Shown here piece after piece: positions 17,001 to 54,255 of a DNA stretch of 64,000 bases. A model generated the notes under the pieces. It was given only the letters and a program-made list of their open reading frames with translations, did no database searches and was not told where the DNA came from. The stretch comes from an uncultured archaeon. GTDB taxonomy: Archaea; Asgardarchaeota; Lokiarchaeia; Sigyniarchaeales; SOKP01. Location of the stretch: assembly GCA_964447495.1 (NCBI GenBank), contig CAYUTF010000005.1, positions 2,240 to 66,239 on the forward strand. Reading direction: 5' to 3'. Positions within the stretch are counted from its first letter, which is position 1; the number at the start of each line of letters is the position of its first letter. Both the position numbers and the translations under genes were made by a program.

Positions 17001-17113
17001 CCAATAGAAGGTGTTCTCTCTACAAGATATACTTTAAATCCTAATTCCGTTAAATCAAGAGATGTTTGAATTCCAGCTATCCCACCACCAATCACCAGAA
17101 CTGAACCTTGCAT
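14003..17113 (-). CDS. hdrA: HdrA-like flavoprotein with duplicated HdrA modules (1036 aa), all-Cys form
   Basis: Two FAD folds ([10 protein letters not shown] and [10 protein letters not shown]), the [11 protein letters not shown] motif, inserted and C-terminal 2x[4Fe-4S] ferredoxin motifs ([44 protein letters not shown]), and an internal HdrA N-domain (VCHCGINIG...[10 protein letters not shown]). Confidence 0.85.
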
Positions 17114-17117
17114 TCTT

Positions 17118-18359: not shown

Positions 18360-18364
18360 GATGA

Positions 18365-19495
18365 TTAACCTTCGATTGTTTTCATAAATTTTTCCCTTCT
18401 GTTATGTTTATTTTGAGAAAAAGCAGCAATGAGTTCCTTCATTTTTTGTTTCCGATCTTCATTAAGATCTAATTTTTTAATTATCCCGCTATTTAATGCC
18501 TTTTCAAATATCTCCTTTCCCTTTTTAGTTCTTGGAATAACAGTAGTATATTTCTCTATTGAGCCGAGCCCTCCAAAAGAAATATCTGAATAAATGTTTG
18601 TAAAGTCTGCGCATGCATTACAGGCGGGACGCATATAGGGTGCTAAATGATTAAAAGGAACATGAATTACCCTGTTCCCTACATTTGGATCCTTTAAGGT
18701 GAAAATTACGTCTTCTTTAATATTTATCTTAATAATATCTCTAAAATTTATGTTAAAATCCTTTTCAAACTTTTTAATTTGGGATTTTTCAAAGAAAAAA
18801 TTTTCATAACAAAATAGACCTAAACATACCTCTATATTTTGCGATGGTGTGACTCCTAAATCTTTCATACACGCAATTGTATAGAGTTGACACGGTGTTC
18901 CTACCACCGCCAGCTTTTTAAATTTATAATGATTCAACTCAGGAATGGAATGAGTATAAGTGCTAAACTTTTGAATTTCATCTAATTGGGGAGTAATATC
19001 TAACTTTGCTCCTGAAGCTTTTAGTAGATCAGATTTACAATCTGCAAAAGTCGCTTCCCTTGAAAATGGAGCTTCGGTTTTCGATACTACCGCACCCTCA
19101 ACCATCTTATTTTTGATTAAAAAGTAAAGGATTGAGTTCACCACACCTCCATCAGTGCCGTACTCTAGGAATTCCTTATCAGTGGCTTGACAAGAATAAA
19201 TATCATCATAGTTTCCTAAAGGCATGGAAGAAAAATCAGTAAATCCATAAGTTTTATTCAGCTGGTCATCTAATATATGAGTTTGAGGACAAATATAATA
19301 ACAGATACCACACTCTAAGCACTTATCTTTATTAATATACACTGGTGGCTTATATTCGTCTTTAAAACCGATAACATCAAATTCTGCTGAACTACAAAAG
19401 CTCACACAGCCTCCACATTCTTGACATATTCCCTTTTCGTGTACCTCTTTTATGAGATCTTCAAAAGTTTTTGTACTCATGATAGATTTATTCAC
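18365..19495 (-). CDS. FrhB/FdhB-family flavin/Fe-S protein (F420-hydrogenase beta-like), paralog 2
   Basis: N-terminal CQECGGCVSFC / CLECGICYYICP, then GTDGGVVNSILYFL, VGTPCQLYT and CNACADFTNIYSDISFGGLG family motifs. It overlaps the upstream frhB-like gene by 8 nt. Confidence 0.75.
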   Translation of the reverse strand: MNKSIMSTKTFEDLIKEVHEKGICQECGGCVSFCSSAEFDVIGFKDEYKPPVYINKDKCLECGICYYICPQTHILDDQLNKTYGFTDFSSMPLGNYDDIYSCQATDKEFLEYGTDGGVVNSILYFLIKNKMVEGAVVSKTEAPFSREATFADCKSDLLKASGAKLDITPQLDEIQKFSTYTHSIPELNHYKFKKLAVVGTPCQLYTIACMKDLGVTPSQNIEVCLGLFCYENFFFEKSQIKKFEKDFNINFRDIIKINIKEDVIFTLKDPNVGNRVIHVPFNHLAPYMRPACNACADFTNIYSDISFGGLGSIEKYTTVIPRTKKGKEIFEKALNSGIIKKLDLNEDRKQKMKELIAAFSQNKHNRREKFMKTIEG

Positions 19496-20996
19496 TTAGA
19501 TTTCTTATTTTATCATAGGGACTCTTACAATTATTTCGTTTAGTACCCCCAATTTTTTCCACTAAAAATAACCCAGGCTTGACTTCTTTGAGGCTTTTAG
19601 ATTCAATATCTCCATTTTTCACTAACTCATTATAGATAGTGTCCGCCTCTTTGGTCCGCGTAATTACTGAAGACCACCCATCTTGAGACCCAATGGAGCC
19701 TACTGAAAAGTCTGCATAATCGGATGTTAAATCCTCACAATAATGGCAACTGTCCCGAGCATATTTCTTTACCTCTTTGAGTGGAACATCTAATTGCTCT
19801 CCAGATTTTAATCGAATGATAAACTTTCCACCTCCAATATTCATCTTAGTCAATTCATTAATATCCTTGTCGAATTGTTCCTTAGCTAGTTGAATGATTC
19901 CCTCATATGGAAATGATTCCATACAGAAGAGCCCTATCTTGTATTTAATATTTTTAAAGAACGGAAGTCCGCTCGGAAAAAGAGTACCTTTCTCTAAAGC
20001 CTTCATCATACAAGGAACCCCTACAAAAGCAATTTTTTCATACTTTTTTGCCTGATCGATGATCGACAAGGACGGAGAATTCGCATATTTCGTGCCCGCC
20101 GTCTTATAGAGTTCCTTCACATTCTCAATAATTACCGGTTCTGGTTTCCATAGTTGATCTGAATGTTGTACTGCAATTACTGCATCAACAAGGTTTTTTT
20201 TCAATAAATATTCGGCGATGGTAGTAACGATCCCTCCATCTTGACGTACTTTTATGATCTCGTCATTCTTTGTGCTTCCCGAATAGGTGCCAATATACCC
20301 TCCAATTTTATCTGACCAATTCAAATTTTTATCTAACTTCTTAATCGCTTCATTCATTTGGTCTATAGAAAAGGAACGAGGGCAGACTGTAAAGCATAAC
20401 CCACACTTCATGCATACATTATCGTCGATTTTAAGCGTATTCGCATCAACCTCGATCGCATTTACAGGACATATGGCAGCACACCAACCGCATTGACAGC
20501 ACGCACCAGCATCATATACGATGGAAACGGGTTCAAAATAGTGTTCAATAAAAGCGGGTTCAAGTTCTTTAACTTGATATCGATAAAAATACTCTTTTAC
20601 CTCGACTTCCTTCTCTTCTCCTTTAATTTTTTTAGTGACCTTTTTGATTTTTACTTCAACAAGTTCCTTTACATATCCCTGCTCTTTTAAGTATATCACA
20701 TCTCGGATAACATTTTCTGGGGGAAATTCCTTGATAACATCCATAATCTCTTCTAAAAATAAGGGTTCTTTGCCTCTTAAATACTCTAAGACGATTTTAC
20801 GCTCCGTTTCAGCATCAACCATAGCATCCAAAATTGCATAGTATTCTTGTTCCCCATATTTTCCTGCTTCAAGAATTTCGTCCTTAGCTTCATAGAAAGC
20901 GCGGATCTGAAAGTTCTTTGACGCTTCATAGGTGGCATCCATCAATTCTTTGGGAGACACCCCTTCAAATAACTTACTATTTACTATTTGAACCAT
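19488..20996 (-). CDS. FrhB/FdhB-family protein with an N-terminal extension of about 150 aa, paralog 1
   Basis: CCQCGWCAAICPVNAI / CMKCGLCFTVCP, VRQDGGIVTTIAEYLL, VGVPCMMKAL, and CHYCEDLTSDYADFSVGSIG. The N-terminal extension has no recognised motif. Confidence 0.75.
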   Translation of the reverse strand: MVQIVNSKLFEGVSPKELMDATYEASKNFQIRAFYEAKDEILEAGKYGEQEYYAILDAMVDAETERKIVLEYLRGKEPLFLEEIMDVIKEFPPENVIRDVIYLKEQGYVKELVEVKIKKVTKKIKGEEKEVEVKEYFYRYQVKELEPAFIEHYFEPVSIVYDAGACCQCGWCAAICPVNAIEVDANTLKIDDNVCMKCGLCFTVCPRSFSIDQMNEAIKKLDKNLNWSDKIGGYIGTYSGSTKNDEIIKVRQDGGIVTTIAEYLLKKNLVDAVIAVQHSDQLWKPEPVIIENVKELYKTAGTKYANSPSLSIIDQAKKYEKIAFVGVPCMMKALEKGTLFPSGLPFFKNIKYKIGLFCMESFPYEGIIQLAKEQFDKDINELTKMNIGGGKFIIRLKSGEQLDVPLKEVKKYARDSCHYCEDLTSDYADFSVGSIGSQDGWSSVITRTKEADTIYNELVKNGDIESKSLKEVKPGLFLVEKIGGTKRNNCKSPYDKIRNLSE

Positions 20997-21130
20997 TGAG
21001 TCTTCATTTTAAATTTTTTTCTTAAAAAATCTAATTTTTACTACTATTTTCCAACTAGCTCCCTCCTGAGCAAGGAGTGTTATCTTATAACCAAAATTTT
21101 CTTATAAGAATCATTCAATGGGAGCTGATA
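20997..21130 (-). promoter_or_regulatory. Candidate SECIS-bearing 3' region of the hdrA-vhuD selenoprotein pair
   Basis: Minus-strand RNA ...CAGCUCCCAUUGAAUGAUUCUUAUAAGAAAAUUUUGGUUAUAAGAUAACACUCCUUGCUCAGGAGGGAGCUAGUUGG... Complementary pairs read directly: AGCUCCC/GGGAGCU, UCUUAUAA/UUAUAAGA (A-rich 11-nt loop, AUGA one nt upstream), and CUCCU/AGGAG. Not folded computationally. Confidence 0.3.
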
Positions 21131-21557
21131 CTAATTCTTTGTTACCTTCTGTCAAATTAATCGGATTGGGACCAATTCTACTAATCTTTTCATACGCATC
21201 TTCAACACTTTTTACTAATTTTTCTGCTTCTGCACTACTACACCAATACATATTCGCTCGTTGATTACCAAAACCTCGTTTTTCAAGTATCCTGTTAGCA
21301 AGATCTATATGTTTTTGAGCTGTGAAATTACCGGCTTTAAATTGACACTCATTAGGTCTTCATCCTACAACCATTACTCCATCTGCACCTGTTTTAATCG
21401 CAAATAAAATATGCTTTACATCAACTCTCCCTGTGCATTTTACTTTGATTATTTTCACATCAGGAGTATATTTAAACCGCGAGACTCCTGCTAAATCTGC
21501 GGCACCATAACCTCATTTTAAGCATGCAAACATGATAATCTTATATTTATGTTCCAT
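21111..21557 (-). CDS. vhuD: VhuD/MvhD-like selenoprotein with two in-frame TGA (Sec) codons
   Basis: Absent from the ORF track. ATG 21557-21555, preceded by GGAGG (21570-21566), overlaps the hdrA stop (AATGGAACATAA). The translation is [46 protein letters not shown]...GADGVMVVG-U-RPNECQF... TGAs at 21515-21513 and 21362-21360 align to Cys in [15 protein letters not shown] and [12 protein letters not shown] of the paralog at 13566..14006. Confidence 0.75.
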
Positions 21558-23499
21558 TTTCTGCGCCTCCTTGTATAATTGCTTCAATTTCAGCATATAA
21601 TTGATAATCCCTATAATACTTTATATCAATTGCTTGAGTTGGACAACAAGATGCACATATACCACATCCGTCGCAATTAATGTCATCAACAACCGCTTTA
21701 TTATCTTTAATAGTTATGGCTCCTTTAGGACATTCCTTTTCACATCGCCCACATGAAATACATAAATCAGGGTTAATTTCAGCAATTATCAATTCAAGAT
21801 CAATTTCACCTGAGGATGTTAGCTCAACTACTTTACTAGCAGCAGCTCTCGCTTGAGATACTGAATAAGCAATATCTTTTGGTCCCTGTGCAAATCCTGC
21901 GATAAATATCCCTTTTGTTTTCGTTTCTTGCGGCATTAATCCAAAATGCGATTCTGTCAAAAAACCATTTTTATCGACATCTAAATTTAGTACTTTGGCA
22001 ATTTGCTGAGTTCCGCGAGAAGGGAGTGCTGCAGTTGATAAGACCACTAAATCTGCATCAATTTTAATAATTTCATCAGTTAGAGAAGAATAAACCCTTA
22101 TTTCAACATTTTTGGTATCAGGGTTTTCTGTAATGCCACCAACTTTTCCACGAATCATCCGAATATCTGAATCTTTTGCCCGTTGGTAATATTCTTCGAA
22201 TCCTTTTTCATTGGTTCTAATGTCAATATAACAGATCGTTATATTAGCGTCGAGTATTTCCTCTTTAAGTAATTTTGCATTTTTGAGAGCCAGCATACAA
22301 CATACTCCGCTACAATAAGTCCTTTCGGTGTCACGGCTGCCAACACATTGGATAAATACAATCTCTTTTGGTTTTTTTAAATCAGATATTCGAGCGATGT
22401 GACCTTCTAATGGACCGTTCGGTGCTAACATTCTCTCAAGTTGGGCTTGATTTATAACATTATCATACTCACCATATCCATACTCACCCATAGGCTCATA
22501 TATGTCCCACCCTGTAGCAATTATTATAGACCCTACTTTAAAATTTACCTCTTCTGGCACTTGGCTAAAATCTATGGCATTTAGCTCACAAACATCAACA
22601 CAACTGAAGCATTCAACACAAGTATCTCTATGAATATCATATAAAAAAGGTACCGCTTGACCAAATGCTATATCAATTGTTTTCCGAACCCCAAGATGTT
22701 CGTCAAAATAATTGGTTATGAACACTGGGCAGACCTCCGAACATGCTCCACACCCATTACAATCATTATTAATGAATCGGGGCATCTTTTCTACCGTGAT
22801 TTCATAATTTCCGACATATCCCTTAACGTTTCTAACAAAACTATAGCTCAATAGTTCTATATTTTCATGACGGTTAACTTCTAACATCTTAGGACCACAT
22901 ATTCAGATGCTACAGTCATCTGTTGGAAATGTTCTGTCCAATTGAGCCATTCTTCCACCAATTGTAGTATTTTTATCAACTAAATATACCTTAATTCCCT
23001 GATTCGCTAAGTCTAAGGCAGCATTCATCCCTGCAATACCTCCACCAACAATTAAACATGCTTTTTCTATTGGAACTGTTCTTATAGGTATTATCTCTAA
23101 AGTTTTAGCTCTTTCTATACCGCTTTTGACTAAAATTTTTGCTTTTTCTGTTGCTTCCTCTTTATCAGCGGTACACCAACTGCAATGTTCTCTTACATTA
23201 ACCATCTGGAAGTAATAGGGGCTTAAATCCGTTTTTGAAATTGAAGCCCGATATATGGGTTCATGTGTCCTTGGAGTTCACGCAGACGCAACTACTCTCG
23301 TTAATTTCTTTTCTTGAATATCTTGGATTATTTCATTTTGTCCACTTTCAGTGCAAAGGAATGCATTAGTTTTGGCAACCACTACGTCATCAAAAGTTTT
23401 AGCAAATTCAACAAGTTCATTACAATCAACTTTACTTCGAATATTTATGCCTCATTGACACGCGTAAAAACCAATCCGATGCTGGGTAGTTTTTTCCAT
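21547..23499 (-). CDS. hdrA: Heterodisulfide reductase subunit A (HdrA) selenoprotein with three in-frame TGA (Sec) codons
   Basis: Track ORFs 21547..22887 and 22903..23205 plus untracked 23206..23499 form one 651-codon frame (ATG 23499-23497, TAA 21549-21547). TGAs fall at 23454-23452 (codon 16), 23280-23278 (codon 74) and 22905-22903 (codon 199). They align to Cys of the 14003..17113 paralog: YACQ-U-GINI vs LVCH-C-GINI; VASA-U-TPRTHE vs [10 protein letters not shown]; DDCSI-U-ICGPKM vs [12 protein letters not shown]. Confidence 0.85.
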
Positions 23500-31807: not shown

Positions 31808-33676
31808 TTGGATAAATTGGAGGAAAAAACTGATCTCAAAAAATCAGAATTAGGCTCCTTATTTTTCTATAAAGCTGTAGCATTAGTAAGGAGGGGAAAT
31901 TATCCAGAGACATTGAAATATGCTAAAAAAGCATATCATGTTGTTCCTAAAGAAGCGTTAAGTCCTCGAATGGTTGAAATTTTAGCGATGATGGGTCTTG
32001 CTTCTTGTTGGATAGGAAATTTTGAAATAGGATATCAATATCTAGATGAAGCTGAGCAGAAATTAAATAACCTAATTGATATTTCAGAAAAAAGACGGAT
32101 TCTTCTGGAAACAATGATATATGCTGATAGGAATTGTGGTTATATGCAACAAGGAAAAAGCGATCTATTCTATGAATCCGCAATGAAGCTTTCAAGTCTA
32201 AGTGAACAGATTAACGACAAATATGTATTGGCTCAAATCTATTATCAATTAGGATCGCTTTATACCTTTATTAGAATTGATATAAAGTTAGCTATAAAAT
32301 ATTCTTTCAAATGTCAACCTCTCGCAGAAGAGTTGGGAAATAATACTTTTATTGCTCTCAATTTAGTAACTATTGGTGCGATTTATGTTATAACAGGTGA
32401 TTTAGAAAAAGCGTTATTTTATCACAAGGAAGCATTGAAAAAAGCTGATATTATCATGATCAAAATGTCTATTTTTAATAATATTTCAATGATATATAGT
32501 CAAAAAGGAGATTTAGATAAAGCTTTAGAATCGCTTGAAAAAGCTTTTGAATTAGCCAATAAAGTTAAAGCCCCATATATTTTGAGCACCACATTGGCAA
32601 GTATGATCGAAGTATTAGTTTTAACAGGCAAAAACGAAAGAGCAAGAGAGCATTTAATTACATTGAAAGAGATTGCTAAAAATGAGAAAAGTCAATTTAC
32701 GGAATTACTTGCCCATTACTGTGAAGGATTTATCTTAAAAACAAAGAGTCGAATTCAAGATCGTGCTAAAGCACAAAATATCTTCGAAGAAATAGTACAG
32801 CAAAACGTGATTTCTGGAGAATTGACAATGAAAGCTCTTATAAATCTGTGTGATTTATTAGTAGAGGAATTTCGCTTTACTTCTGAATTGGAAATATTAG
32901 ATGATCTGAGTATATTACTTGAAAAATTAATAACTATTGCAAAAAGTCTAAATTCTTTTTGGATTTTAACTGAAACTTATCTATTACAAGCAAAATTTGC
33001 TTTATTAAAAGGAGATTTGAAGAGTGCTAGGAAAAAATTAACTGAGGCTCAAGATCTCGCCGAGAAAAATAATCTTAAATTATTAGTTGGTAAAATATCA
33101 TATGAGCATGATAAAATATTACGAAATTTGAAGATGTGGGAATCACTTATAGAAAAAGATGTTCCTTTAAATGAGCGAATCGAGTTAGCTGAATTAACCG
33201 TACATATTGAAAATATGCTTCTTAATCGGAAGGTTTCTCTTGAAATTTCTGAAGAAGACCCCGTAATAATCTTAATCATTACAGAAGGAGGCACACCCAT
33301 ATTTTCACATTCATTTATTAAAGAAAAAACATTTGAAACCCAAATTATTGGTGGATTTCTAACAACAATAGATTACTTTATTAAAGAGACTTTTTCTCAA
33401 GGATTAGATCGAGCAGTTTTCGGAAATTATACACTCTTAATGAAATACATTCAACCTTTTTACATAACCTATATCTTTAGTGGTAATTCTTATTATGCCC
33501 TTCAAAGAATTAATTATTTTACTGAAAATTTGAAAAATAAAGATATAATATGGGAAAAATTAATAGTTAATTGTGAAAAGGGTAAAACTATTCGCCTTAA
33601 TGATATTCCTTTACTGGAAACATTGATAAGTAATACTTTTATATACAAAAATGTAGAATTAAATCAACTAATATAA
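31808..33676 (+). CDS. TPR-repeat protein with a C-terminal roadblock/longin-like alpha-beta domain
   Basis: TPR-like helices run through about aa 1-450. The C-terminal segment PVIILIITEGGTPIFSHSF...QIIGGFLTTIDYFIKETF...AVFGNYTLLMKYIQPFYITYIFSG..YYALQRINYFTENL has a strand-helix-strand-strand-helix pattern. The frame is open from 31736 with no canonical start before TTG 31808. Confidence 0.5.
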   Translation: MDKLEEKTDLKKSELGSLFFYKAVALVRRGNYPETLKYAKKAYHVVPKEALSPRMVEILAMMGLASCWIGNFEIGYQYLDEAEQKLNNLIDISEKRRILLETMIYADRNCGYMQQGKSDLFYESAMKLSSLSEQINDKYVLAQIYYQLGSLYTFIRIDIKLAIKYSFKCQPLAEELGNNTFIALNLVTIGAIYVITGDLEKALFYHKEALKKADIIMIKMSIFNNISMIYSQKGDLDKALESLEKAFELANKVKAPYILSTTLASMIEVLVLTGKNERAREHLITLKEIAKNEKSQFTELLAHYCEGFILKTKSRIQDRAKAQNIFEEIVQQNVISGELTMKALINLCDLLVEEFRFTSELEILDDLSILLEKLITIAKSLNSFWILTETYLLQAKFALLKGDLKSARKKLTEAQDLAEKNNLKLLVGKISYEHDKILRNLKMWESLIEKDVPLNERIELAELTVHIENMLLNRKVSLEISEEDPVIILIITEGGTPIFSHSFIKEKTFETQIIGGFLTTIDYFIKETFSQGLDRAVFGNYTLLMKYIQPFYITYIFSGNSYYALQRINYFTENLKNKDIIWEKLIVNCEKGKTIRLNDIPLLETLISNTFIYKNVELNQLI

Positions 33677-33779: not shown

Positions 33780-34316
33780 ATGAGTAAAGGAGAATATCAA
33801 TTCAAAATTTCAGTAGTAGGAGATGGAGCGGTAGGCAAAACTTCTCTTATTAAAATGTTTACAAAAGGAATATTTGAAAAAGATTATATCAAAACTATTG
33901 GCGCGCAATTTTCACGATTTGAAAAAGTAATAGAGAATGATAGCGTAAATCTAGTCTTCTGGGATATCGCTGGTCAAGAAGATTTTGATTTTCTTCAGCC
34001 ACTATTTTATAAAGAGAGTAAAGCTTCTATTGTAGTCTATAGTCTTGAAGATAATGATTTAGGTAGAGAGAGTTTTAATCATATAAAGAACTGGGTTCAA
34101 AATCTAAGAAAATATTGCGGAGAAATCCCCCTGATTTTATTTGCTAATAAGGTAGATTTAATAGAGGAAAATGAATTAAATTTACTGGATATAAAGAACA
34201 TAGCTGAAAAACATAATTTTTTTAGCTTTTCCTTGACTTCTGCGAAAACAGGCCAGGGAGTTAATGAAGCATTTAATCTAATCATCCATGAATTATATAA
34301 TAAGTATAGAGAGTAA
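33780..34316 (+). CDS. Rab/Ras-like small GTPase
   Basis: G1 GDGAVGKTS, switch I YIKTIGAQF, G3 WDIAGQE, G4 NKVDL, G5 TSAKTG. There is no C-terminal prenylation Cys. Confidence 0.9.
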   Translation: MSKGEYQFKISVVGDGAVGKTSLIKMFTKGIFEKDYIKTIGAQFSRFEKVIENDSVNLVFWDIAGQEDFDFLQPLFYKESKASIVVYSLEDNDLGRESFNHIKNWVQNLRKYCGEIPLILFANKVDLIEENELNLLDIKNIAEKHNFFSFSLTSAKTGQGVNEAFNLIIHELYNKYRE

Positions 34317-34547
34317 TTAAAAATCTGAGAACTTAAAATGGTTTGTGTTATTTTTGTAAATTATTATTTCTGTATCGAAGATTGTGGCATATATCCTTAA
34401 TATCAAAGGTTAAAGATGCTAAAATCATTATATTTAAACGTATTTTTTGTAAGTTAAGGAAAGATTTTTATGGTGAGATGATCTAAAATCTTAATAATTA
34501 TAAATATTTAAATACATTTTTCCGTTATTAGCCTCTTCTTTCTTACA

Positions 34548-36143
34548 ATGACGAATCCTAACTTCCCTCCCGAAGAGATATTCGAAAACAGAGCTGAATT
34601 TGGTTTATACAATTCAATAAGGATGCTAACCAAGATTATTGAGTCATCAGATGATAGTAATAAAAGAAAAAGTGCGATAAAGTATTTAGGATTAGTAAGT
34701 AAAGAAGCACCAGCATATAAAGAAGAGTGTTTTGATAGTATAGAAAACATTTTAATCTCGGAAGAGAATATTGAAATTAAATGCGAAGCGGCTAAGGCTT
34801 TAGGAAAATTAAAACTGAAAAAGGCTTTAAAACCTTTACTATGGATTTTTGATAAATCCGTAGATAACAACGATTTAAGGCTTTCAATATTAAAAGCGAT
34901 CTATAAAATTACATTTGAAGATGCTGAAATTGAACTCTTCATAAAAGAATTAGATTCTTCTCATATTGAAATTAAGGAATATGTGAAAAATCAGTTACTT
35001 ATCCTCAATCCTGAAGTATTGGTAAAAAAATTAATTAATTCTTTACCTAATAAAAATCTTTCAAATAAAAATAAAGCGGAGATAATAAAGTTAATTGCTT
35101 TTGAAATTTCGAGTATAAATTCATCCTTTGAGGGTTCAAGTTTCATAGAAGTAAAGTATCCCGAAATTCTCTCAGAATTAATAAACCAAAAAGAAGTATT
35201 GCTGACAGAAATAACTCAAATATTGAAGACAGATGATAAAAGTCTACTTGAATCATCAATTTCGATTCTTAGTATACTTAAGGATAATATTAAAGAAGAT
35301 ATTATTAAGTTACTCCTTACAGATAATTTCATCATAAAAAAAAATGCAATTACAATTTGTGGTAAACTTCAATTAATTGAGGCTGCAGACTTAATAGTTC
35401 AAAACTTGGATAATCTCTATAATGAGGTAAGCATAGCTTCAATCGAGGCATTAGGAGAGATTGGTGATCTTACAACTGTACCTGATTTACTTGATATTCT
35501 AAATGTTGAAGATATCAGTTTTGAATATTCTGATATTGATATGAAATTCCAAATTATGGATGCTGTAAAAAAAATTTATTTAAAGCATGATCAAATATCC
35601 TATAAGGACTTATATCAATCTTTAGAAAAGGAAAATGACACTATCAGGGCGAGCATCGCATTTATTTTAGGAGAGATAGGAAGAGAAGAATTTATACAAC
35701 CATTAATACGACTATTGAAGATTAAAAACGTAGATGTTAGAAAAAATATAATAATAGCTCTAGGAAAAATAGGACATATCGATGCTTTAGATAATTTAAT
35801 TGATATTATTAATGATGATAGTGCATATTGGCTTATTAAAAAAGTAACTACTGATGCTATATATAATATCTTTCAACAAAATTCGTATAAGATTGATAAA
35901 AATACTAAACAATTGAAATCGGAATTAAATAAAAAAATAGCTATTATTATTGAGCATTTAAGAGAATCAGAGAAGGAAAATTACAAAGTTAAATTAGGTT
36001 TAATAAAATTCTTAGAAACTTTCGGAGATACAAAAGCTTTAGATGCTTTATTGAGAAGAGTTAATGATTTTCATAGAGTAGTTAGAATTTATGCTTCTAA
36101 TGCGATTAAAAAAATCGAGGAAAGATTGGAATTAGGCAATTAA
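34548..36143 (+). CDS. HEAT-repeat (PBS-lyase HEAT-like) protein
   Basis: Recurring units such as EAAKALGKLKLKKALKPLL, SIEALGEIGDLTTVPDLLDIL, IAFILGEIGREEFIQPLIRLL, and IIALGKIGHIDALDNLI. Confidence 0.7.
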   Translation: MTNPNFPPEEIFENRAEFGLYNSIRMLTKIIESSDDSNKRKSAIKYLGLVSKEAPAYKEECFDSIENILISEENIEIKCEAAKALGKLKLKKALKPLLWIFDKSVDNNDLRLSILKAIYKITFEDAEIELFIKELDSSHIEIKEYVKNQLLILNPEVLVKKLINSLPNKNLSNKNKAEIIKLIAFEISSINSSFEGSSFIEVKYPEILSELINQKEVLLTEITQILKTDDKSLLESSISILSILKDNIKEDIIKLLLTDNFIIKKNAITICGKLQLIEAADLIVQNLDNLYNEVSIASIEALGEIGDLTTVPDLLDILNVEDISFEYSDIDMKFQIMDAVKKIYLKHDQISYKDLYQSLEKENDTIRASIAFILGEIGREEFIQPLIRLLKIKNVDVRKNIIIALGKIGHIDALDNLIDIINDDSAYWLIKKVTTDAIYNIFQQNSYKIDKNTKQLKSELNKKIAIIIEHLRESEKENYKVKLGLIKFLETFGDTKALDALLRRVNDFHRVVRIYASNAIKKIEERLELGN

Positions 36144-37918: not shown

Positions 37919-38839
37919 GTGCTCCCGTACTTGAAAATTGCATTGATAGGGCTTTCAGGTTGTGGTAAAACAAGCCTCTACTCTGTTGCTTTTGCGGAAA
38001 AAAGTCCAGAAGACACCAAAAAGTTTAGTCCAACAATTTTATATGAAACTCGAAGGCATCCCTTTTTAGGATTACAAGTTGGCATATTTGACTTTGGAGG
38101 GCAAGAACAATATAGAAAAGAGTATATGGAAAAGCCAGAAGTGTTTAGAGGTACTGATATCTTAATTCCTATTGTGGATTTACATGATCCTAAATCTTTT
38201 AAGCAAGCAAAGGAGTATTTTGAAGGGTTATTAAATATTTATCGAAAAAATAATGAAAAGCCGAAAATCTTTCTATTCTTGCATAAATATGACGTTGAGA
38301 ATTATCAAAAAGAACTTCTCGATACAAACGTTAAAATGGCTAAGGAAGCTTTATTAGATTTGTTCAAGGATTATGAGTTTGATTACAAGTTAACGAGTAT
38401 TTATTTACAAGATGAATTAGCTAAAATTTTCAGGGATATTTTAATATCTTCCTATTCAGAGCTAAAAACTCATGTTGAGAAAGCAGAGAAGCAGTTAGAA
38501 GAAATTAAAGCAAAAATTATTATTTCTGATGTATCGGGAAATGTCATAGTACATAATGTTCAAGGCGTGAGTAGTGGATTAACATTAAGGGGAGATTTAA
38601 GAGACTTTATCAATGCTTGCAATACAGTCCGAGAAAATCTTTTTATGTCAGATTCTGCTGAGTTTAAAGGGAGAAATGATGATGGAAAAGAGATTGAACT
38701 CTACATCTTCAAGTATATCATTTCTGTTCTTGTAATGAAATCTGGGGAGATTGAACGTGAATCTCAAGATAAACTTAATATGTTATTGAATGACATGAAA
38801 TTATTTGCTGATTTAATAATTTCAGCCCACACTGAGTAG
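37919..38839 (+). CDS. Rag/Gtr1-like GTPase with a C-terminal roadblock domain
   Basis: G1 GLSGCGKTS, G3 DFGGQEQY, and an atypical G4 HKYD (compare HKMD of Rag GTPases). TSIYLQDELAKIFRDIL resembles the Rag TSIWDETLYKAW segment. The C-terminal roughly 120 aa show an alpha-beta roadblock pattern. Confidence 0.7.
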   Translation: MLPYLKIALIGLSGCGKTSLYSVAFAEKSPEDTKKFSPTILYETRRHPFLGLQVGIFDFGGQEQYRKEYMEKPEVFRGTDILIPIVDLHDPKSFKQAKEYFEGLLNIYRKNNEKPKIFLFLHKYDVENYQKELLDTNVKMAKEALLDLFKDYEFDYKLTSIYLQDELAKIFRDILISSYSELKTHVEKAEKQLEEIKAKIIISDVSGNVIVHNVQGVSSGLTLRGDLRDFINACNTVRENLFMSDSAEFKGRNDDGKEIELYIFKYIISVLVMKSGEIERESQDKLNMLLNDMKLFADLIISAHTE

Positions 38840-38891: not shown

Positions 38892-39533
38892 TTAGGTATA
38901 GAATATTCTATAAAGTTCGTCATAAAGTCTTGCAAGCTTAGAAATTACATCGGGATTATTTTGTTGTAAATAATATGAGAGATAACTTGATAAACCTTGT
39001 GGATTTTTAATCCATTCTAAAAAAGCCTCAACTTCTGCTTTTATTAAAGGATCGATATTAATCTCGCCTACTTTTGATAACCCATTATAACTTTTAGCTA
39101 AATTCTCCGCTTCTTCAGTATCGACATCCGTTTCAATAAATGTAGATTTTGATCCTTTTGATATCATAGCAGCAGCCCTTGCTACAGCAGGATAAGCTAA
39201 ATGAAACCATCCTTTCGCTTTAGGACTGATTTGAGCAATCATGTATTTATCTCCATCGGGTGTAGCTGCCCCAATAAGATGCCCCTTATTATGCCGATTG
39301 GTTGCAATGAATCGTTCTGGTGCCATTTGAACAATCGAATAGCGTATACTTGCTACTGTAACTGATTGAGCAGAATTACTTGTCCAAGATGCTAATAGAT
39401 TTTTTATATCGCTTTTAATATTCCAATTCTTTGTTGAATATAGCATTTTTCCATTGTTTGCAATAATTGCTATAGATTTTGCATCTTTATAATGATGCTG
39501 TAATTTGCTGACCACATTTTTAAAATCTGCCAT
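38892..39533 (-). CDS. Profilin-like protein with a C-terminal extension of about 80 aa
   Basis: The profilin-type pattern SIAIIANNGKMLYSTKNWNIKSDIKNL ... VASIRYSIVQMAPERFIATNRHNKGHLIGAATPDGDKYMIAQ parallels eukaryotic AAIIGHDGSVWAQS ... [24 protein letters not shown]. The first roughly 130 aa match profilin length. Confidence 0.55.
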   Translation of the reverse strand: MADFKNVVSKLQHHYKDAKSIAIIANNGKMLYSTKNWNIKSDIKNLLASWTSNSAQSVTVASIRYSIVQMAPERFIATNRHNKGHLIGAATPDGDKYMIAQISPKAKGWFHLAYPAVARAAAMISKGSKSTFIETDVDTEEAENLAKSYNGLSKVGEINIDPLIKAEVEAFLEWIKNPQGLSSYLSYYLQQNNPDVISKLARLYDELYRIFYT

Positions 39534-47925: not shown

Positions 47926-49131
47926 ATGAAATTAGAACTTAGCGATTTAAACAATGGGTTAGTTTATATCGGAGACAAACTCAATGTGAGAACAAAGTTT
48001 CACTTTGAAAAGGAAACCCCAATATTATGGTCTGGTATTAAACTACTTGCTCACTCCCCTTGCTTTAAAGAAATACAAATCGCAAAAAATGAGATTTTCT
48101 CTAAAGGCACTTTTGAAGCGGGGGATTATTATCGCGATCGTGCCTTATTAGTAACTAATAATGCTGTACCTACAATAAAGAGCCGTAATCTAAATTATGA
48201 AATTAAACTTACGCTTCGGCAACCACATCCACTTAATCCTAGTGAAGATGATCTTATAATAAATAAAGCTCATGATATTACTATCAAAACTAAAGAAATG
48301 GGTATTCTAAATAAAAAGCCAAACCCTATTTCATTCTCAATGTCGGGATTAAATTTAATGATATCCAAAGATATTTTCAAACCGGGAGAAACGATGAAAA
48401 TAAATTTTTCTTCAGAAGAAATTAGACATATCGAAGTGCGATTATTACAGGAAGCAAATATTATTTGTTATTGTGAAGCTTACGGTCAAAATTGTAGGAA
48501 AGTAGAAATATTACCCCCTGCAATCGCAGGAGATGCAAAGACCTCTGATATAGACAAGGGCTATTTATTATTAAAAATTCCTGAAATCGCTGAACCAACT
48601 CATAACTATTTATGGGAACCTACAGAAAAAGAGCATTGGGGATTTAATTTTGGAGATTATTCTAAGTGGTTTCTATTAGTATTAGCGAAACCTATAGTTG
48701 GACGAGAAATAATTAAATTTGAAGTTCCTATTATGATTTCAGCATCACCAATCGAGAAAGAAAAAGGAGATATCGATCTATTTGCAAAAGCTACAGGAAG
48801 TGCACCGTCGTTATTTGAAGGTGTTTCATCCAAATTTCAAAATATTTACAAAATAATATCGATTGATTCGGATATTGAAAAGTATAGAATACACATTAAA
48901 AATATATCAAAGCATAAACTCGAAGGGGTTACCGTTAAACTGATAGGATTACAAGAAGCATTATTCGAAACAGCACCAGCATTAACTGGGTTTAAAGAGT
49001 GGGATGTTAATGAAGAAAAAGAGGTTGAATACCTTACAAAACAAAACATTACTACGCTAATTTCTCTATTTGAGGATAACTCACAGAGATCTATACGAAT
49101 TCAATCACCTCTCTCTTCGGATTTCTTTTAA
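47926..49131 (+). CDS. Hypothetical protein, possible arrestin/Spo0M-like double beta-sandwich
   Basis: Two similar halves: VYIGDKLNVRTKFHFEKETPILWSGIKLLAHS...FEAGDYY...VPTIKSRNLNYEIKL and IFKPGETMKINFSSEEIRHIEVRLLQEANI. A third beta-rich region follows. Confidence 0.35.
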   Translation: MKLELSDLNNGLVYIGDKLNVRTKFHFEKETPILWSGIKLLAHSPCFKEIQIAKNEIFSKGTFEAGDYYRDRALLVTNNAVPTIKSRNLNYEIKLTLRQPHPLNPSEDDLIINKAHDITIKTKEMGILNKKPNPISFSMSGLNLMISKDIFKPGETMKINFSSEEIRHIEVRLLQEANIICYCEAYGQNCRKVEILPPAIAGDAKTSDIDKGYLLLKIPEIAEPTHNYLWEPTEKEHWGFNFGDYSKWFLLVLAKPIVGREIIKFEVPIMISASPIEKEKGDIDLFAKATGSAPSLFEGVSSKFQNIYKIISIDSDIEKYRIHIKNISKHKLEGVTVKLIGLQEALFETAPALTGFKEWDVNEEKEVEYLTKQNITTLISLFEDNSQRSIRIQSPLSSDFF

Positions 49132-49184
49132 TTATCATCTGTTGATTAATTTCAACTTTAAAAACTTTAGATGAAGCGAATAAA

Positions 49185-49991
49185 ATGAATAAATCTGAAA
49201 TGCTCAAGTTTTTCTTTGATGATCCAAAGTCTAAAGGAATCGAGAAACAATTAGATAATAATAGACTTCAATATTTTTATTTTAAAGACGATTTAAGTAT
49301 ACATACGGAAAAAAAGGAAGTATTGAATGGATGCTTATTAAAAGGACAATGTGAATTAAAATTTGAAAATTTCACTTTTAAGCTTGATCAATTTGATCTA
49401 TTTTTTTTACCTCCTGAAAAGGAGATATCAATTCACTTAGATTCTAAAATTAAGCATCAAAATAAAATATGTCTTTATTATAGTCGAATTAAAGATACTG
49501 TGGAGGCAAAATTCGAGATACAACAATTTTCTTTGGATAAATTTATTCCAAGAGGAGAATTTAGCTCAGAAACAAAAATGGCTACATATCGTACAGTTTG
49601 GACTGCATTTAAAAACGGCTACTTTATGTCTGGATTTACAAATATACCTAAAAAGGCTCTAAAGCAAGGTGTAGTAACCAGTGTTAATATAGAATCTCCA
49701 TCTGATGAGGATAAGGAAATTTTTCCACATATACATCCTGATTTTCCAGAAGTCTATATCTTTTGTATTGATGATGATAATTATGCGGTTACCCAATATT
49801 TAATAGATGATGCGGGAAAATCGGTCTGTCAAGATATACCCGATGGAGGAGGTGTATTTTTTCCCGGATATCTTGGGCATTTAAATTTTGCAAAACCATT
49901 TGGTAAAAATATTAAATATTGTATGTATCTATGGTTTATATCAACGCAAGGAGAAACTCACACTGTAAATCCTATAACGCTTAGAGTGTAA
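49185..49991 (+). CDS. Cupin-fold protein (IolB/KduI-like?)
   Basis: FPHIHPDFPEVYIFCIDD ... GGGVFFPGYLGH resembles a cupin metal site. The assignment is weak. Confidence 0.3.
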   Translation: MNKSEMLKFFFDDPKSKGIEKQLDNNRLQYFYFKDDLSIHTEKKEVLNGCLLKGQCELKFENFTFKLDQFDLFFLPPEKEISIHLDSKIKHQNKICLYYSRIKDTVEAKFEIQQFSLDKFIPRGEFSSETKMATYRTVWTAFKNGYFMSGFTNIPKKALKQGVVTSVNIESPSDEDKEIFPHIHPDFPEVYIFCIDDDNYAVTQYLIDDAGKSVCQDIPDGGGVFFPGYLGHLNFAKPFGKNIKYCMYLWFISTQGETHTVNPITLRV

Positions 49992-50135: not shown

Positions 50136-51626
50136 TTGATAATTTTGTCGAATATGAATATAATTCACACCTTTTTATATCCTAAATCAGTTGCTGTAAT
50201 AGGTGCTTCGAAAAATCCCTTAAAAGGAGGGAATCGAATTGTAAATAATCTTGTGAACAATAAATTTAATGGTAAGGTTTACCCAGTAAATCCAAATGCC
50301 AGTGGAGAGATTTATGGATTGGAATTCAAAACCTCGGTGTTAGATATCGATGATGATGTTGATCTTGCTATTTTTTACGTTCCAAATCGCATGATTCCTA
50401 ATTTATTGAAAGAGTGTATTACAAAAGGCATAAAAGGAGCCATCATTGAGGCGTCTGGATTTGAAGAAGTTGGTGAATTAGGTCTTCAACTTAGAGATGA
50501 AATTCTGGAAATAACTGATAATTTCAACAAGATTAAAATAGTTGGTCCGAATTGCATGGGATTGACTAGAATAGATCATAACAGTAATTCTGAAAATAAG
50601 GGAGGTTTTTTCAGTAGTTTTGGTGTCTTTTCATATTACAATACAGGAAATATTGCAGTAATAAGTCAATCTGGGATGCTTAATGGAGGTTATTTAATGC
50701 ATATCTTCGCTAAATATCCTAAAATAGGTTTCAGATACTCTATTTCAATTGGAAATAAAATGGATCTAGGAGAAAATGAATTCTTAGAGTATTTAATTGA
50801 CGATCCTAAGATAAATGTAATTGCTATTTATTTAGAATCTTTTAAAGACCCTAGAAAGTTCCTTGAATTATGTAAAAAAGTAAAAATCAGGCATGATAAG
50901 ACTATAATTCTTGTCAAAGGCGGAGTTTCGAAACTAGGACAAAAAGCCGCACACAGTCATACTGGAACTCTTGCTGAAAATTCTAGGTTAATTAATGCTG
51001 TTATTAAACAGGCAGGTATTATTCAGGCAAATAGTTTTCATGAATTATTTCAATATGCTCAAACTTTTTCAATGATATATGCAACTAAGAAAAGTTTTCC
51101 AATCAAGGGGAATGCAGCGATGGTTGCCGGTTCGGGAGGAGCAGGTACTATAACAGCAGATTTAACCAATAAACATGGGTTAGATTTTCCAATGTTAAGT
51201 AAAGAAACATATGATATACTGTTGAGTGTTTTTCCCGAATGGATGCCCCCAAATAGGTTTTCATTAGTTGATATTTGGCCTGCTATGGAAAAAGCGATGA
51301 TGAATGACGTAAATCCACAGGTTGTAACTGCTAAGGTTTATAAAGCATTAGTAGCTGATAGTGATATTGAAGGGGTGTTCAATATGTTATTTTGCTCACC
51401 GCTATATCGTCAATTTAATAATTTAGAAAATATCATAGACGAGCTAAGATATAACCCTAAACCTTTCTTTTTTTGGTTAATAGGCGATAAAAAAGAAGTA
51501 GAAAAAACATCGCGCTTTTTAAGTGAACATGATATCCCAGATTTTCCAAGTTTGGAAGATATGGTTAAAAATTTTGAAATTTTGGTACAAGAAGCAAGAA
51601 ATAAGGATAATACAAAGGGTAAATAG
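50136..51626 (+). CDS. ADP-forming acyl-CoA synthetase alpha-type subunit (CoA-binding plus CoA-ligase domains)
   Basis: FLYPKSVAVIGASKNPLKGGNRIV...KVYPVNPN...DLAIFYVPNRMIPNLLKECITKGIKGAIIEASGF and GPNCMGL. Confidence 0.75.
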   Translation: MIILSNMNIIHTFLYPKSVAVIGASKNPLKGGNRIVNNLVNNKFNGKVYPVNPNASGEIYGLEFKTSVLDIDDDVDLAIFYVPNRMIPNLLKECITKGIKGAIIEASGFEEVGELGLQLRDEILEITDNFNKIKIVGPNCMGLTRIDHNSNSENKGGFFSSFGVFSYYNTGNIAVISQSGMLNGGYLMHIFAKYPKIGFRYSISIGNKMDLGENEFLEYLIDDPKINVIAIYLESFKDPRKFLELCKKVKIRHDKTIILVKGGVSKLGQKAAHSHTGTLAENSRLINAVIKQAGIIQANSFHELFQYAQTFSMIYATKKSFPIKGNAAMVAGSGGAGTITADLTNKHGLDFPMLSKETYDILLSVFPEWMPPNRFSLVDIWPAMEKAMMNDVNPQVVTAKVYKALVADSDIEGVFNMLFCSPLYRQFNNLENIIDELRYNPKPFFFWLIGDKKEVEKTSRFLSEHDIPDFPSLEDMVKNFEILVQEARNKDNTKGK

Positions 51627-51653: not shown

Positions 51654-52361
51654 TTAAAGAGAATAGCATACATTTTCTGTACTATTATTCTCTATTTTTA
51701 ATATTTCCTTCTTTAGAAATAAACTTCTAAAAAATTCTACATTATTTATCATTGGAGGTAAGGGGGGCAAATTTACTCCTCCAGATTTTAAATAGTATAA
51801 CCTTGGAATCAACCCAATGAGATCTCTATATGAAGTCACCATTTTCATGATTTTATGCCAAGACTGCCCCGCTTTAAAATTAACATCATTAGTTAATTCA
51901 AAATACACAATATCTAAATTTAGAAATAAGAAGACTTCTTTTTTTACATCATAAATCTTCTGAAGACGAGTTATAATATTCTTTTTTAATGAATCATATT
52001 CTAATCCAATTTGATGGTTTATCACTTCAAGGATTTTTGCTAAAACCAAAGCTGCTGTATCGTTATGAATAACCCAATTTATAGGCACTAATGAGAGTTT
52101 GGGGAATAATCTTGAAATAACCTCAATACTTATACTCCTCACCAGAGAGCTCTCATCAGATAGCATGCAATTTTCAAGAATTTTGAAAATATATGCTCCT
52201 TTTAATTCTAATTTACCTATAATCTCAATGCATTTGGTTCGTATATGGATATTATCACTTTTTTCTAATAATGAAATTAGAATATCAGTAGCAGCTTTTT
52301 GATTTAAATTGTCTTTTAATACTTCATAATACACTTTTTCGGGGGTATATTTCTCTTCCAT
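51654..52361 (-). CDS. Hypothetical HEAT-like repeat protein
   Basis: The N-terminal half has HEAT-like units (IRTKCIEIIGKLELKGAYIFKILENCMLSDESSLVRSISIEVISRLF). It lies 133 nt downstream of the MglA-like GTPase on the same strand. Confidence 0.4.
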   Translation of the reverse strand: MEEKYTPEKVYYEVLKDNLNQKAATDILISLLEKSDNIHIRTKCIEIIGKLELKGAYIFKILENCMLSDESSLVRSISIEVISRLFPKLSLVPINWVIHNDTAALVLAKILEVINHQIGLEYDSLKKNIITRLQKIYDVKKEVFLFLNLDIVYFELTNDVNFKAGQSWHKIMKMVTSYRDLIGLIPRLYYLKSGGVNLPPLPPMINNVEFFRSLFLKKEILKIENNSTENVCYSL

Positions 52362-52494
52362 ATTTAATGATCAAATACTATAAACGTAATTAAATTGTAT
52401 ATTGTTTTGTTTATTGATGATAAAGAATCTAAGATAGCCATTTAATCTTATCCATAAAAGAATAGAAAAAAAATGAAAGAAATATGTAAAAAAG

Positions 52495-53154
52495 TCAATG
52501 AATTGCTGAAACTAATTGGTTCTTGTATAGTTGCTTAAATACTAAACTCAAAATCTCTTCGAATGAATCTAAGATTCCCTCTCCGTTAAGAGCAATGGTG
52601 TTTTTGATATTAATATTCTTGTATTTATAATAATTAATTTGATCCAGGAATACTTTTGGATTGTATTTACCTTGTACGTCCTGTTTGTTAAATGCGATAA
52701 TTTTTGGGATATCTTCAAATTTGTCTTCATAAAAAGAGCATAATTCATTCCAAGAGGTTAAAGTTCGGTTGAAGGCCTTTTTTTGAGAATCTGCGACAAA
52801 GATTATCCCATCAATTGCTCTTAGGGTAATTGGGCGGGTCACAATATAGAAGTCCTGACCTGTGGTGCTGTAAATATGAATTTTTAATAACCATAGTTCA
52901 TTTTGAAAAGAAATACTACCATAATCAAAAAATAAAGTACGACGTACTGAACTTTCTATTGATTCTAGTTTATTTTCCATTCCAAAATGCTTAAAAAGGG
53001 ATTTAATAGAAGTTGTTTTCCCTGATAAAGCAGGACCGTAATAGACTATTTTAATCTGTATATATTTTTCTAACCAATCAATAATCATAATCAAATAATA
53101 TCTATTTGTTATAATTCTAAAAATAGGTTTATAAAAGACTATTTTTTCAGTCAA
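52495..53154 (-). CDS. MglA-like small GTPase
   Basis: KIVYYGPALSGKTTSIKSL (MglA: KIVYYGPGLCGKTT), RTLFFDY, YSTTGQDFY, DGIIFVADSQ, FNKQDV. The true start is probably an internal Met (MIIDWLEKY...). Confidence 0.8.
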   Translation of the reverse strand: MTEKIVFYKPIFRIITNRYYLIMIIDWLEKYIQIKIVYYGPALSGKTTSIKSLFKHFGMENKLESIESSVRRTLFFDYGSISFQNELWLLKIHIYSTTGQDFYIVTRPITLRAIDGIIFVADSQKKAFNRTLTSWNELCSFYEDKFEDIPKIIAFNKQDVQGKYNPKVFLDQINYYKYKNINIKNTIALNGEGILDSFEEILSLVFKQLYKNQLVSAIH

Positions 53155-53188
53155 TGATAATTATACTCAATAGCATAATAAAGCTTGA

Positions 53189-53338
53189 TTAATCGTCTAT
53201 ATCACTCCCAAACCATAATTTTTTTCCTTTTTTTACCCAATTATCAATTCCAACCTTTTTAATAGCTTTTAAATTTTCTCTACACGAATCACCGCAATAT
53301 AACCCACAATATCCCAGAAATTCTTTTTTAGTTTTCAT
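53189..53338 (-). CDS. Possible small Cys-rich ORF (49 aa)
   Basis: MKTKKEFLGYCGLYCGDSCRENLKAIKKVGIDNWVKKGKKLWFGSDIDD. The GxCGxxCxxC start resembles DUF3795-type proteins but is much shorter. It is below the ORF-track cutoff. Confidence 0.25.
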   Translation of the reverse strand: MKTKKEFLGYCGLYCGDSCRENLKAIKKVGIDNWVKKGKKLWFGSDIDD

Positions 53339-53430
53339 TGTATTTCAAGGTTTAAAAAAAGTCATTATGATTTATATGAATATTGATACTATATGGTTTA
53401 AGACGTGAGTCTGAAAAATAAGATATACAT

Positions 53431-53808
53431 TTAGAGTAAAATTTTGTTATTGTCGACTTTACATGATAATAGAGAGCGTAAAACTAAAATTTCGATCTCT
53501 TTTTTAAGTGTAGCCTCATCAATTTCTAAAGATTCTTCTTCGCTCAATAATTTAAGTAATTCTTCATAGCTGATTTCTTTCTTCTCATTTGAAATGTAAA
53601 AGATTGATTTTAATATCAATTGCTGATTATATAAAGAACGGACATTTGAATCCAGCTGATATAACTTATGAGTTAAATTGTAATTATAACTACTTTCCTT
53701 TTCAATGACTTTTAATTTATCCAATATCATCATTGCTCTTTTATAATGTTCTTTTAGCATTAATTCTTGTACTTCATTTAGCTGGTTGATAAATTCTTGG
53801 GAGTTCAT
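53431..53808 (-). CDS. Hypothetical helical protein with a PCI-like winged-helix C-terminus
   Basis: The C-terminal ISYEELLKLLSEEESLEIDEATLKKEIEILVLRSLLSCKVDNNKIL resembles the WH end of PCI domains. This is pattern level only. Confidence 0.3.
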   Translation of the reverse strand: MNSQEFINQLNEVQELMLKEHYKRAMMILDKLKVIEKESSYNYNLTHKLYQLDSNVRSLYNQQLILKSIFYISNEKKEISYEELLKLLSEEESLEIDEATLKKEIEILVLRSLLSCKVDNNKILL

Positions 53809-54027: not shown

Positions 54028-54255
54028 ATGGATAAAGAAAAAGTAAAACAAGTTATTGAAAAAATTCGACCACAATTGCAAATGGATGGCGGAGACATTG
54101 AGCTCATAAGCGTTGAGGATGATGGGACTGTACGGGTAAGACTAATGGGCCATTGTGTTGGTTGTATGCATGCACAGCAGACATTAACATATGGTGTTGA
54201 AAAAGCTTTAAAACAGTTTGTTCCTGAAATAAAGCAAGTAGTAAATGTAGCCTAA
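54028..54255 (+). CDS. NifU-like (Nfu C-terminal domain) Fe-S cluster carrier
   Basis: IRPQLQMDGGDIELISVEDDGTVRVRLMGHCVGCMHAQQTL, with the CxxC motif. Confidence 0.85.
   Translation: MDKEKVKQVIEKIRPQLQMDGGDIELISVEDDGTVRVRLMGHCVGCMHAQQTLTYGVEKALKQFVPEIKQVVNVA

Follow-up and report, generated by a model that had tools for sequence, protein, structure and literature searches.

With what does a small GTPase of the MglA family work when no gene for its roadblock partner, MglB, lies beside it? The question is raised by a 64,000-nucleotide stretch of DNA (the window) from an uncultured archaeon of the Lokiarchaeia (GenBank assembly GCA_964447495.1, contig CAYUTF010000005.1, positions 2,240 to 66,239 of the forward strand). 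A reading made from the letters alone (the sequence-only reading) had described an MglA-like GTPase here, flanked by a HEAT-like protein, a tiny cysteine-containing open reading frame (ORF) and a PCI-like helical protein. All four minus-strand ORFs (51654-52361, 52495-53154, 53189-53338, and 53431-53808) were confirmed, and the MglA motifs that had been quoted are present. With moderate confidence, we interpret the locus as an orphan MglA1-type switch in a conserved Lokiarchaeia-like syntenic block. The four genes, with positions given in window coordinates, are these:

52495-53088, minus strand: small GTPase of the MglA family (group-1-like, or "MglA1"), 197 aa, assigned by a phmmer search of the PDB, orthologues and Pfam.
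53431-53808, minus strand: p125, an acidic 125-aa protein predicted to consist of a TPR-like hairpin, a long helix and a winged helix, from an AlphaFold2 (AF2) model and homologues.
53189-53338, minus strand: 49-aa ORF, a relic of a DUF3795 gene, from alignment to an intact gene in a related locus (L018).
51654-52361, minus strand: HEAT235, a 235-aa helical-repeat (HEAT-like) protein, accessory, from a marginal Pfam HEAT match and an AF2 model.

The GTPase ORF had been listed at 219 aa, from an upstream TTG at 53154. Translation almost certainly starts at the ATG at 53088 and yields a 197-aa protein beginning MIIDW: a 100%-identical database entry (P0001, from a 73.5-kb contig) has this length and begins MIID, as do more than 100 orthologues. 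The closest relatives are proteins of metagenome-assembled genomes (MAGs) named Lokiarchaeota, Promethearchaeota, Hodarchaeota, or Heimdallarchaeota. In the phmmer search of the PDB, the MglA proteins of Myxococcus xanthus (E = 2.2e-25) and Thermus thermophilus (E = 6.5e-24) came first, and the next matches, to Rab and Arf proteins, had E values of 1.7e-4 or worse. This drop, by about 20 orders of magnitude, upholds the original MglA assignment. A BLASTP alignment with M. xanthus MglA has 31.6% identity across 193 columns, and the protein also scores above the cut-offs of the Pfam Arf, Roc, and Ras models. Its motifs comprise a P-loop (G18-T26), an arginine finger (R50) beside the G2 threonine (T51), the G3 motif S74-T-T-G77-Q78, and the G4 motif N134-K-Q-D137. 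The pair R50-T51 aligns to the intrinsic arginine finger and G2 threonine of M. xanthus MglA (R53-T54), S74-T-T-G-Q78 aligns to T78-V-P-G-Q82, and N134-K-Q-D aligns to NKRD. Among 26 orthologues, G18, G23, K24, T25, T26, R50, T51, G77, Q78, and N134/K135/D137 are invariant; the G3 motif has no aspartate, its glycine and glutamine never vary, and the Thr-Val-Pro signature of bacterial group 1 is not kept.

Group-1 MglA proteins are defined by an arginine adjoining the G2 threonine and by a G3 motif without aspartate, according to Wuichet and Sogaard-Andersen (PMC4316618). Judged by its sequence, the GTPase is a genuine member of the MglA family, of group-1 type. The complete MglA catalytic set is invariant across the orthologues, and the protein is therefore very likely active as a nucleotide switch. 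The segment between G1 and G2 aligns to MglA with only a 2-residue gap. An insertion at this point is described as a bacterial trait in PMC4316618, and its presence in both bacterial MglA and this GTPase hints at a transfer from bacteria to archaea. The sequence-only reading had presented an MglA without MglB as unusual. The absence itself stands, and the peculiarity does not: 59 uncoupled MglA homologues, SofG and the MglA of Bdellovibrio among them, are counted in PMC4316618. Asgard groups MglA1 and MglA2-5 have likewise been reported in the literature, as have MglA-like GTPases identified with AF2 in the MK-D1 genome. The GTPase thus falls into an already catalogued group, and its lack of an adjacent MglB has precedent.

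No roadblock gene was found within about 6 kb of the GTPase in the window and in about 12 related loci. No match to the roadblock family (PF03259) came from a Pfam scan of about 40 ORFs of the window, and the family is missing from the precomputed Pfam labels of the neighbours in the related loci. A phmmer search of window and related-locus ORFs with one roadblock sequence, human DYNLRB1, also gave no match; this test is insensitive and adds weak negative evidence only. The neighbours themselves have non-roadblock folds, and the claim that MglB is not adjacent was sustained. As a divergent MglB, p125 was rejected because its confident model (predicted local distance difference test [pLDDT] score, 94.4) consists of three helices and then a winged helix and because it has no Pfam match; HEAT235 was rejected because its AF2 model is all-helical. 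A 213-aa ORF at 38892-39533 (minus strand) was also considered as a roadblock candidate and turned out to be an Asgard profilin homologue. It matches the Loki profilins 5yed/5zzb (E = 2.5e-10) and the Heimdall profilin 7pbh (E = 8e-9), extends about 90 aa farther at its C terminus, and is convergent with a Rag/Gtr-like GTPase gene at 37919-38839 (plus strand; Gtr1_RagA, E = 1.3e-23). The C-terminal part of that Rag/Gtr-like protein, to judge by its Gtr1_RagA architecture, is the one place in the window where a roadblock-type domain is plausible.

An MglA-type switch would hydrolyse GTP slowly when alone, and its partner would reposition the GTPase's own arginine and glutamine and supply no finger, as the MglA/MglB structures suggest. 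In the interpretation preferred here, the role of the GTPase-activating protein (GAP) would be filled by a roadblock/longin protein encoded elsewhere in the genome. By analogy with known MglA systems this seems the most likely arrangement, because no partner is adjacent and roadblock proteins are abundant in Asgard genomes (PMC10933270). The expected GAP would then act in trans.

No Pfam or NCBIfam family matched p125. A word-index search with it returned 79 clusters, all Asgard, and an exhaustive profile search of 1.84 billion representatives returned only 39 homologues at E ≤ 1e-3, many of them fragments. The homologues share a near-invariant block, YNLTHKLYQLDSNxxSLYNQQ, on a long helix (residues 43 to 73), and the residues Y43, H47, Q51, S54, N55, S58, and Q62 form an invariant polar face of this helix. 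In the winged helix, E104, E106, L108, L110, and R111 are invariant. Taken together, p125 can be described as a small, strongly constrained, Asgard-only, and uncharacterised family. The AF2 model (40 sequences; pLDDT, 94.4; predicted template-modelling score, 0.85) places helices at residues 3 to 18, 22 to 38, and 43 to 73, the first two forming the TPR-like hairpin (residues 3 to 38). The winged helix (residues 78 to 124) consists of a strand (78 to 80), two helices (81 to 92 and 98 to 110), and a beta hairpin (117 to 124).

A Foldseek comparison of the p125 model with the PDB returned nothing at E ≤ 1e-3. The top matches were C-terminal WHB domains of cullins (E = 0.02 to 0.04), with query-normalised TM-scores of about 0.45 to 0.49; PCI modules of eIF3a/c, CSN, and Rpn followed at nonsignificant E values of 0.06 to 0.25, and the best cullin WHB and PCI matches taken together had E values of 0.02 to 0.09 and scores from 0.42 to 0.49. 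In a profile search of the PDB, the only match was to the TPR of Cdc27 (residues 7 to 51; E = 0.024). The sequence-only reading had likened the C terminus of p125 to a PCI winged helix. A winged helix does follow helical hairpins, so the term "PCI-like winged helix" suits the architecture; the best fold matches, being nonsignificant, do not establish p125 as a PCI-family member.

A winged-helix protein encoded first in a run of co-directional genes of varying content could also be a transcription regulator, with p125 controlling the genes downstream of it on the same strand (the GTPase and variable inserts). Foldseek did return DNA-binding winged helix-turn-helix proteins (F93, BlaI, and LmrR), at E values of 0.16 to 0.22. 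The top fold matches, however, are the protein-binding winged helices of cullin WHB and PCI. The p125 family is acidic (median isoelectric point [pI], 5.3), the winged helix more so (pI, 4.7; 12 Asp/Glu versus 8 Lys/Arg), and its putative recognition helix carries invariant glutamates. This acidity speaks against DNA binding and would be in keeping with protein-protein interaction, and we consider a transcription regulator highly improbable.

We then turned to the linkage between p125 and the GTPase. A total of 104 loci were collected from homologue look-ups with the GTPase, p125, and HEAT235, from a genome scan, and from a metagenome scan with a p125 profile; the genome scan used GTPase peptide patterns that were too specific and yielded 4 loci. 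The loci were mapped by tblastn, and 70 dereplicated informative p125 loci were counted:

GTPase downstream of p125 on the same strand, less than 500 bp away (typically 64 to 130 bp): 44 of 70 loci.
GTPase downstream of p125 on the same strand, 0.5 to 2.6 kb away: 19 of 70 loci.
p125 without a GTPase within at least 2.7 kb: 7 of 70 loci.

A same-strand GTPase thus follows p125 in 63 of the 70 loci. Among loci found by starting from the GTPase, p125 lies upstream in 10 of 11. The exception, L004 (5177-7345, a Lokiarchaeota MAG), has a GTPase 64% identical to ours with a HAD hydrolase gene upstream and a 209-aa gene and CDC48 downstream; this GTPase may have been translocated or may be a paralogue. 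All genes inserted between p125 and the GTPase are co-directional with both. They encode a zinc-ribbon/repeat membrane protein (250 to 590 aa) with a 149-aa transmembrane (TM) protein, a 96-aa TM protein with a HisKA/HATPase_c kinase, or a polytopic membrane protein of about 520 aa (522 aa), and they are unrelated to GTPase regulation. The spacer is an insertion hotspot, as seen in L024, L025, L036, L040, L042, L043, L054, and L066 and further in L067, L076, L078, L080, L082, L089, and L096.

The pair sits in a wider recurrent block, made up of NifU on the opposite strand, p125 and the GTPase on one strand, an optional HEAT-like gene, two convergent genes, for a 268-aa protein (optional) and a 401-aa protein (p401), and a HAD gene. 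The block is a conserved, vertically inherited synteny. In the window, its flanks are the following:

54028-54255, plus strand: 75-aa NifU-like gene (Pfam NifU, E = 2.3e-27) that runs divergently to p125 and forms one conserved flank.
47926-49991, plus strand: gene pair for p401 (47926-49131, plus strand) and the 268-aa protein, convergent with the GTPase (tblastn maps).

In most relatives, these genes directly abut the GTPase. The window copies of these two proteins had no Pfam or PDB sequence match, and the 268-aa protein is without a family; one p401 homologue (L012, 10295-11497) carries a faint precomputed match to Arrestin_C. In two loci, L100 (5001-10197) and L102 (2296-7462), a p125 homologue is followed directly by a homologue of the 268-aa protein, and the homologue of the arrestin-like p401 adjoins a Rag/Gtr-like GTPase and FrhB, both of which lie about 10 to 15 kb off in the window.

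Several of these observations weigh against a specific bond between p125 and the GTPase. Of 58 loci, 44 (76%) have NifU upstream of p125 and within 600 bp of it, and 50 (86%) have it somewhere in the locus; p401 comes after the GTPase in 33 of 36 loci (92%), compared with 90% for the p125-GTPase order (63% for direct neighbours). Unrelated membrane or kinase genes, 0.5 to 2.6 kb in all, split p125 from the GTPase in the 19 loci listed above. Loci with p125 and no GTPase nearby include L026, L028, L058, and L084, as well as L100/L102, whose divergent p125 homologue (28% identity) has no MglA-like gene with it; the GTPase of L004 has no p125. The mirror-tree partial correlation between p125 and p401 (0.58) is above that between p125 and the GTPase (0.45). 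Overall, p125 and the GTPase are linked no more tightly than general synteny would produce. The placement of the roadblock GAP elsewhere, for its part, is an expectation, the stretch analysed being 64 kb of this genome.

Pure synteny is thus a serious rival. In it, p125, the GTPase, HEAT235, and the flanks would be functionally unrelated genes kept together in a young clade or by a stable gene order, the partners of the GTPase would be encoded elsewhere, and p125 would have an independent role. Adjacency alone cannot be separated from synteny, because the control adjacencies NifU-p125 and GTPase-p401 are equally conserved. In addition, the genes are separated by gaps of 64 to 130 bp and do not overlap, which gives no sign of translational coupling. 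Other features speak for more than gene order: the same-strand order is kept despite the inserts, which are themselves co-directional; the p125 and GTPase families share a narrow, Asgard-only range; and the strong, surface-type conservation of p125 suggests a conserved macromolecular partner. The p125-GTPase correlation of 0.45 also exceeds the values of 0.08 to 0.19 obtained between the GTPase and the control genes p401, NifU, and HAD. The mirror-tree comparison is statistically weak because its pairs are not independent, and its result is suggestive, not discriminating. On balance, we regard pure synteny as quite possible, though short of probable.

If p125 does act on the GTPase, it could do so as a new nonroadblock regulator that replaces MglB as a GAP, a guanine nucleotide exchange factor, or a protein resembling a guanine nucleotide dissociation inhibitor, with a logic like that of the RomX-type small helical partners of MglA. 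In its favour, the neighbourhood is without an MglB, p125 alone among the genes shares the orientation of the GTPase and usually sits right beside it, and p125 has the invariant polar helix face and the invariant E104, E106, and R111. The charges are complementary, too, with an acidic p125 and a basic GTPase (pI, 8.75). The linkage is loose, however, the GTPase retains the arginine and glutamine machinery that a roadblock dimer serves in known MglA proteins, and roadblock proteins are plentiful in Asgard genomes (PMC10933270). A replacement of MglB by p125 is therefore rather unlikely in our judgement.

Returning to the orphan MglA1-type switch, p125 would fit more naturally as an adaptor or effector of the basic GTPase, acting through the invariant surface of helix 3 or through the winged helix. 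We tentatively name p125 the best locally encoded candidate for such a role, a proposal that seems plausible without yet being probable; a functional link between the two proteins is possible but unproven. A broader version, in which p125 is an unrecognised nonroadblock partner (regulator or effector) that forms, with the HEAT-like protein and the arrestin-like p401, a Lokiarchaeial GTPase module of "eukaryote-flavoured" parts, namely a PCI/cullin-like winged helix, HEAT repeats, and arrestin-like folds, appears unlikely.

For the HEAT-like gene, the sequence-only reading had pointed to a second HEAT/GTPase adjacency in the window, which suggested a recurring pairing. HEAT235 scores just under the cut-off of the Pfam HEAT model (E = 6.7e-5; 23.2 bits versus 23.5) and further below that of HEAT_2 (20.2 bits versus 27.7). 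Its AF2 model, built from 5 sequences, is all-helical, with hairpins over residues 1 to 145 at pLDDT values of 60 to 90 and an unreliable C-terminal third (mean pLDDT, 61.7). A homologue, P0201, is named "HEAT repeat domain-containing protein" by NCBI. The HEAT assignment is weak, its score falling short of the family threshold. A word-index search returned 5 clusters, and more homologues were found by tblastn on related loci; intact ones (235 to 237 aa; 39 to 56% identity) occur in L015, L021, L022, L027, L045, and L103. In 7 of 7 known contexts, HEAT235 comes directly after the GTPase and on its strand, yet of the 49 dereplicated GTPase loci that extend far enough downstream, only 5 (about 10%) carry it, and in L012 only a remnant of about 35 residues is left. 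It is a real gene and a dispensable accessory, repeatedly lost in several lineages. Conservation of the neighbourhood, which had been proposed as a check on the grouping, is found for p125 (63 of 70 loci) and not for HEAT235, absent from about 90% of GTPase loci, nor for the 49-aa ORF.

The second adjacency does exist, at 33780-36143 on the plus strand, where a Ras-family GTPase (33780-34316; E = 1e-41) is followed by a 531-aa HEAT_2 protein (34548-36143; E = 2e-35). It could be taken as a sign that HEAT-repeat proteins are recurring, dedicated partners of small GTPases and that HEAT235 substitutes for MglB. The invariable position of HEAT235 next to the GTPase and a weak Rap_GAP-like match in the tail of the 531-aa protein (E = 0.008) fit this idea. 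The two HEAT proteins, however, have no significant similarity to each other (E = 0.07), and the MglA-like and Ras/Rab-like GTPases belong to different families (pairwise E = 5.4). Together with the rarity of HEAT235, its decay in L012, the subthreshold HEAT assignment, and the low-confidence model, this largely refutes a dedicated HEAT partner, which we hold to be very unlikely. The two adjacencies are best regarded as coincidental and unconnected, the repeat type being very common, and the recurring pairing is not upheld. As a separate observation, a gene for a 622-aa TPR protein (31808-33676, plus strand), the Ras/Rab GTPase, and the 531-aa HEAT_2/PBS-lyase repeat protein stand in a row, and the latter two, given the Rap_GAP-like C terminus, may be a GTPase and GAP pair.

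The 49-aa ORF had been noted as uncalled and as having a CxxxCxxxC motif. The locus L018 has, at the same intergenic position, an intact 153-aa DUF3795 gene (PF12675; E = 5.4e-11; 43.3 bits versus a cut-off of 22.6). In a global alignment, the ORF corresponds to residues 2 to 16 fused in frame to residues 120 to 153 of the L018 protein, with a single 103-residue gap. The ORF itself has no Pfam match, DUF3795 included. Elsewhere, L021 has a C-terminal DUF3795 piece only, with stops before it, and most loci have nothing at this position. Because it aligns to both ends of the intact L018 protein with a 103-residue gap, the ORF is a decaying deletion relic of a DUF3795 gene, the product of a 103-codon in-frame deletion, and not a conserved microprotein.

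One further gene lies near the locus, between the GTPase side and the 268-aa gene:

50136-51626, plus strand: 496-aa CoA-binding, succinyl-CoA-ligase-like gene (Pfam Succ_CoA_lig, E = 7e-44).

This insertion is found in the closest relatives only, and orthologues (80 to 83% identity) occur solely in L012, L014, L018 to L021, and L103. The window as a whole is AT-rich, with a GC content of about 27 to 38% in 2-kb windows, and scans of it for transfer RNAs and Rfam families gave zero matches. Farther away, at 13566-23205 on the minus strand, is a large redox cluster with an MvhD/FlpD-like subunit (PF02662, E = 1.6e-57), whose larger ORFs resemble heterodisulfide-reductase or FAD-oxidoreductase genes; the cluster is unrelated to the GTPase locus.

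To our knowledge, the partners and functions of many Asgard small GTPases are almost entirely unknown. If p125 proves to be a partner, an MglA would be controlled or read out with no roadblock GAP encoded beside it, and p125 and the GTPase would form a concrete two-protein pair that could be studied in the test tube. For now the analysis serves chiefly to correct: the GTPase belongs to a catalogued group, the cysteine ORF is a relic, the HEAT gene is optional, and the adjacency is inseparable from synteny. Novelty is accordingly low to moderate; the class of GTPase is known, and the p125 family with its position is the apparently new part. In the literature accessible to us, this family and its usual place beside the GTPase appear undescribed.

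Among known systems, MglB and the Roadblock-LC7 GAPs are the partner class expected for an MglA with an intrinsic arginine and glutamine; their alpha/beta fold is found in none of the three neighbours of the GTPase and PF03259 in none of the scanned window ORFs and related loci. With PCI proteins and cullin WHB domains (eIF3a/c, CSN, Rpn, and cullin C termini), p125 shares TPR-like hairpins followed by a winged helix; it is far smaller at 125 aa, has no Pfam PCI match and no evident partner subunits, and resembles their folds only at nonsignificant scores. Compared with DUF3795 proteins (PF12675), the 49-aa ORF retains the N-terminal CGLYCGxC start and the C-terminal tail and lacks the 103 internal residues, most of the domain. 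The orphan MglA proteins (M. xanthus SofG and Bdellovibrio MglA) and Asgard MglA1 are alike in being MglA-family switches without an adjacent MglB, and the available portions of the reports on them do not describe a conserved 125-aa winged-helix neighbour or a HEAT-like accessory. From the MglA proteins of M. xanthus and T. thermophilus, the GTPase differs in its Asgard host, in a G3 motif of STTGQ instead of TVPGQ, in the lack of an adjacent mglB, and in having no known context of motility or polarity. What it shares with these group-1 proteins (6h17, 5ymx, and 3t12), its best matches, is the P-loop, the arginine finger by the G2 threonine, the aspartate-less G3 motif with its glutamine, the NK(Q/R)D motif, and the long segment between G1 and G2.

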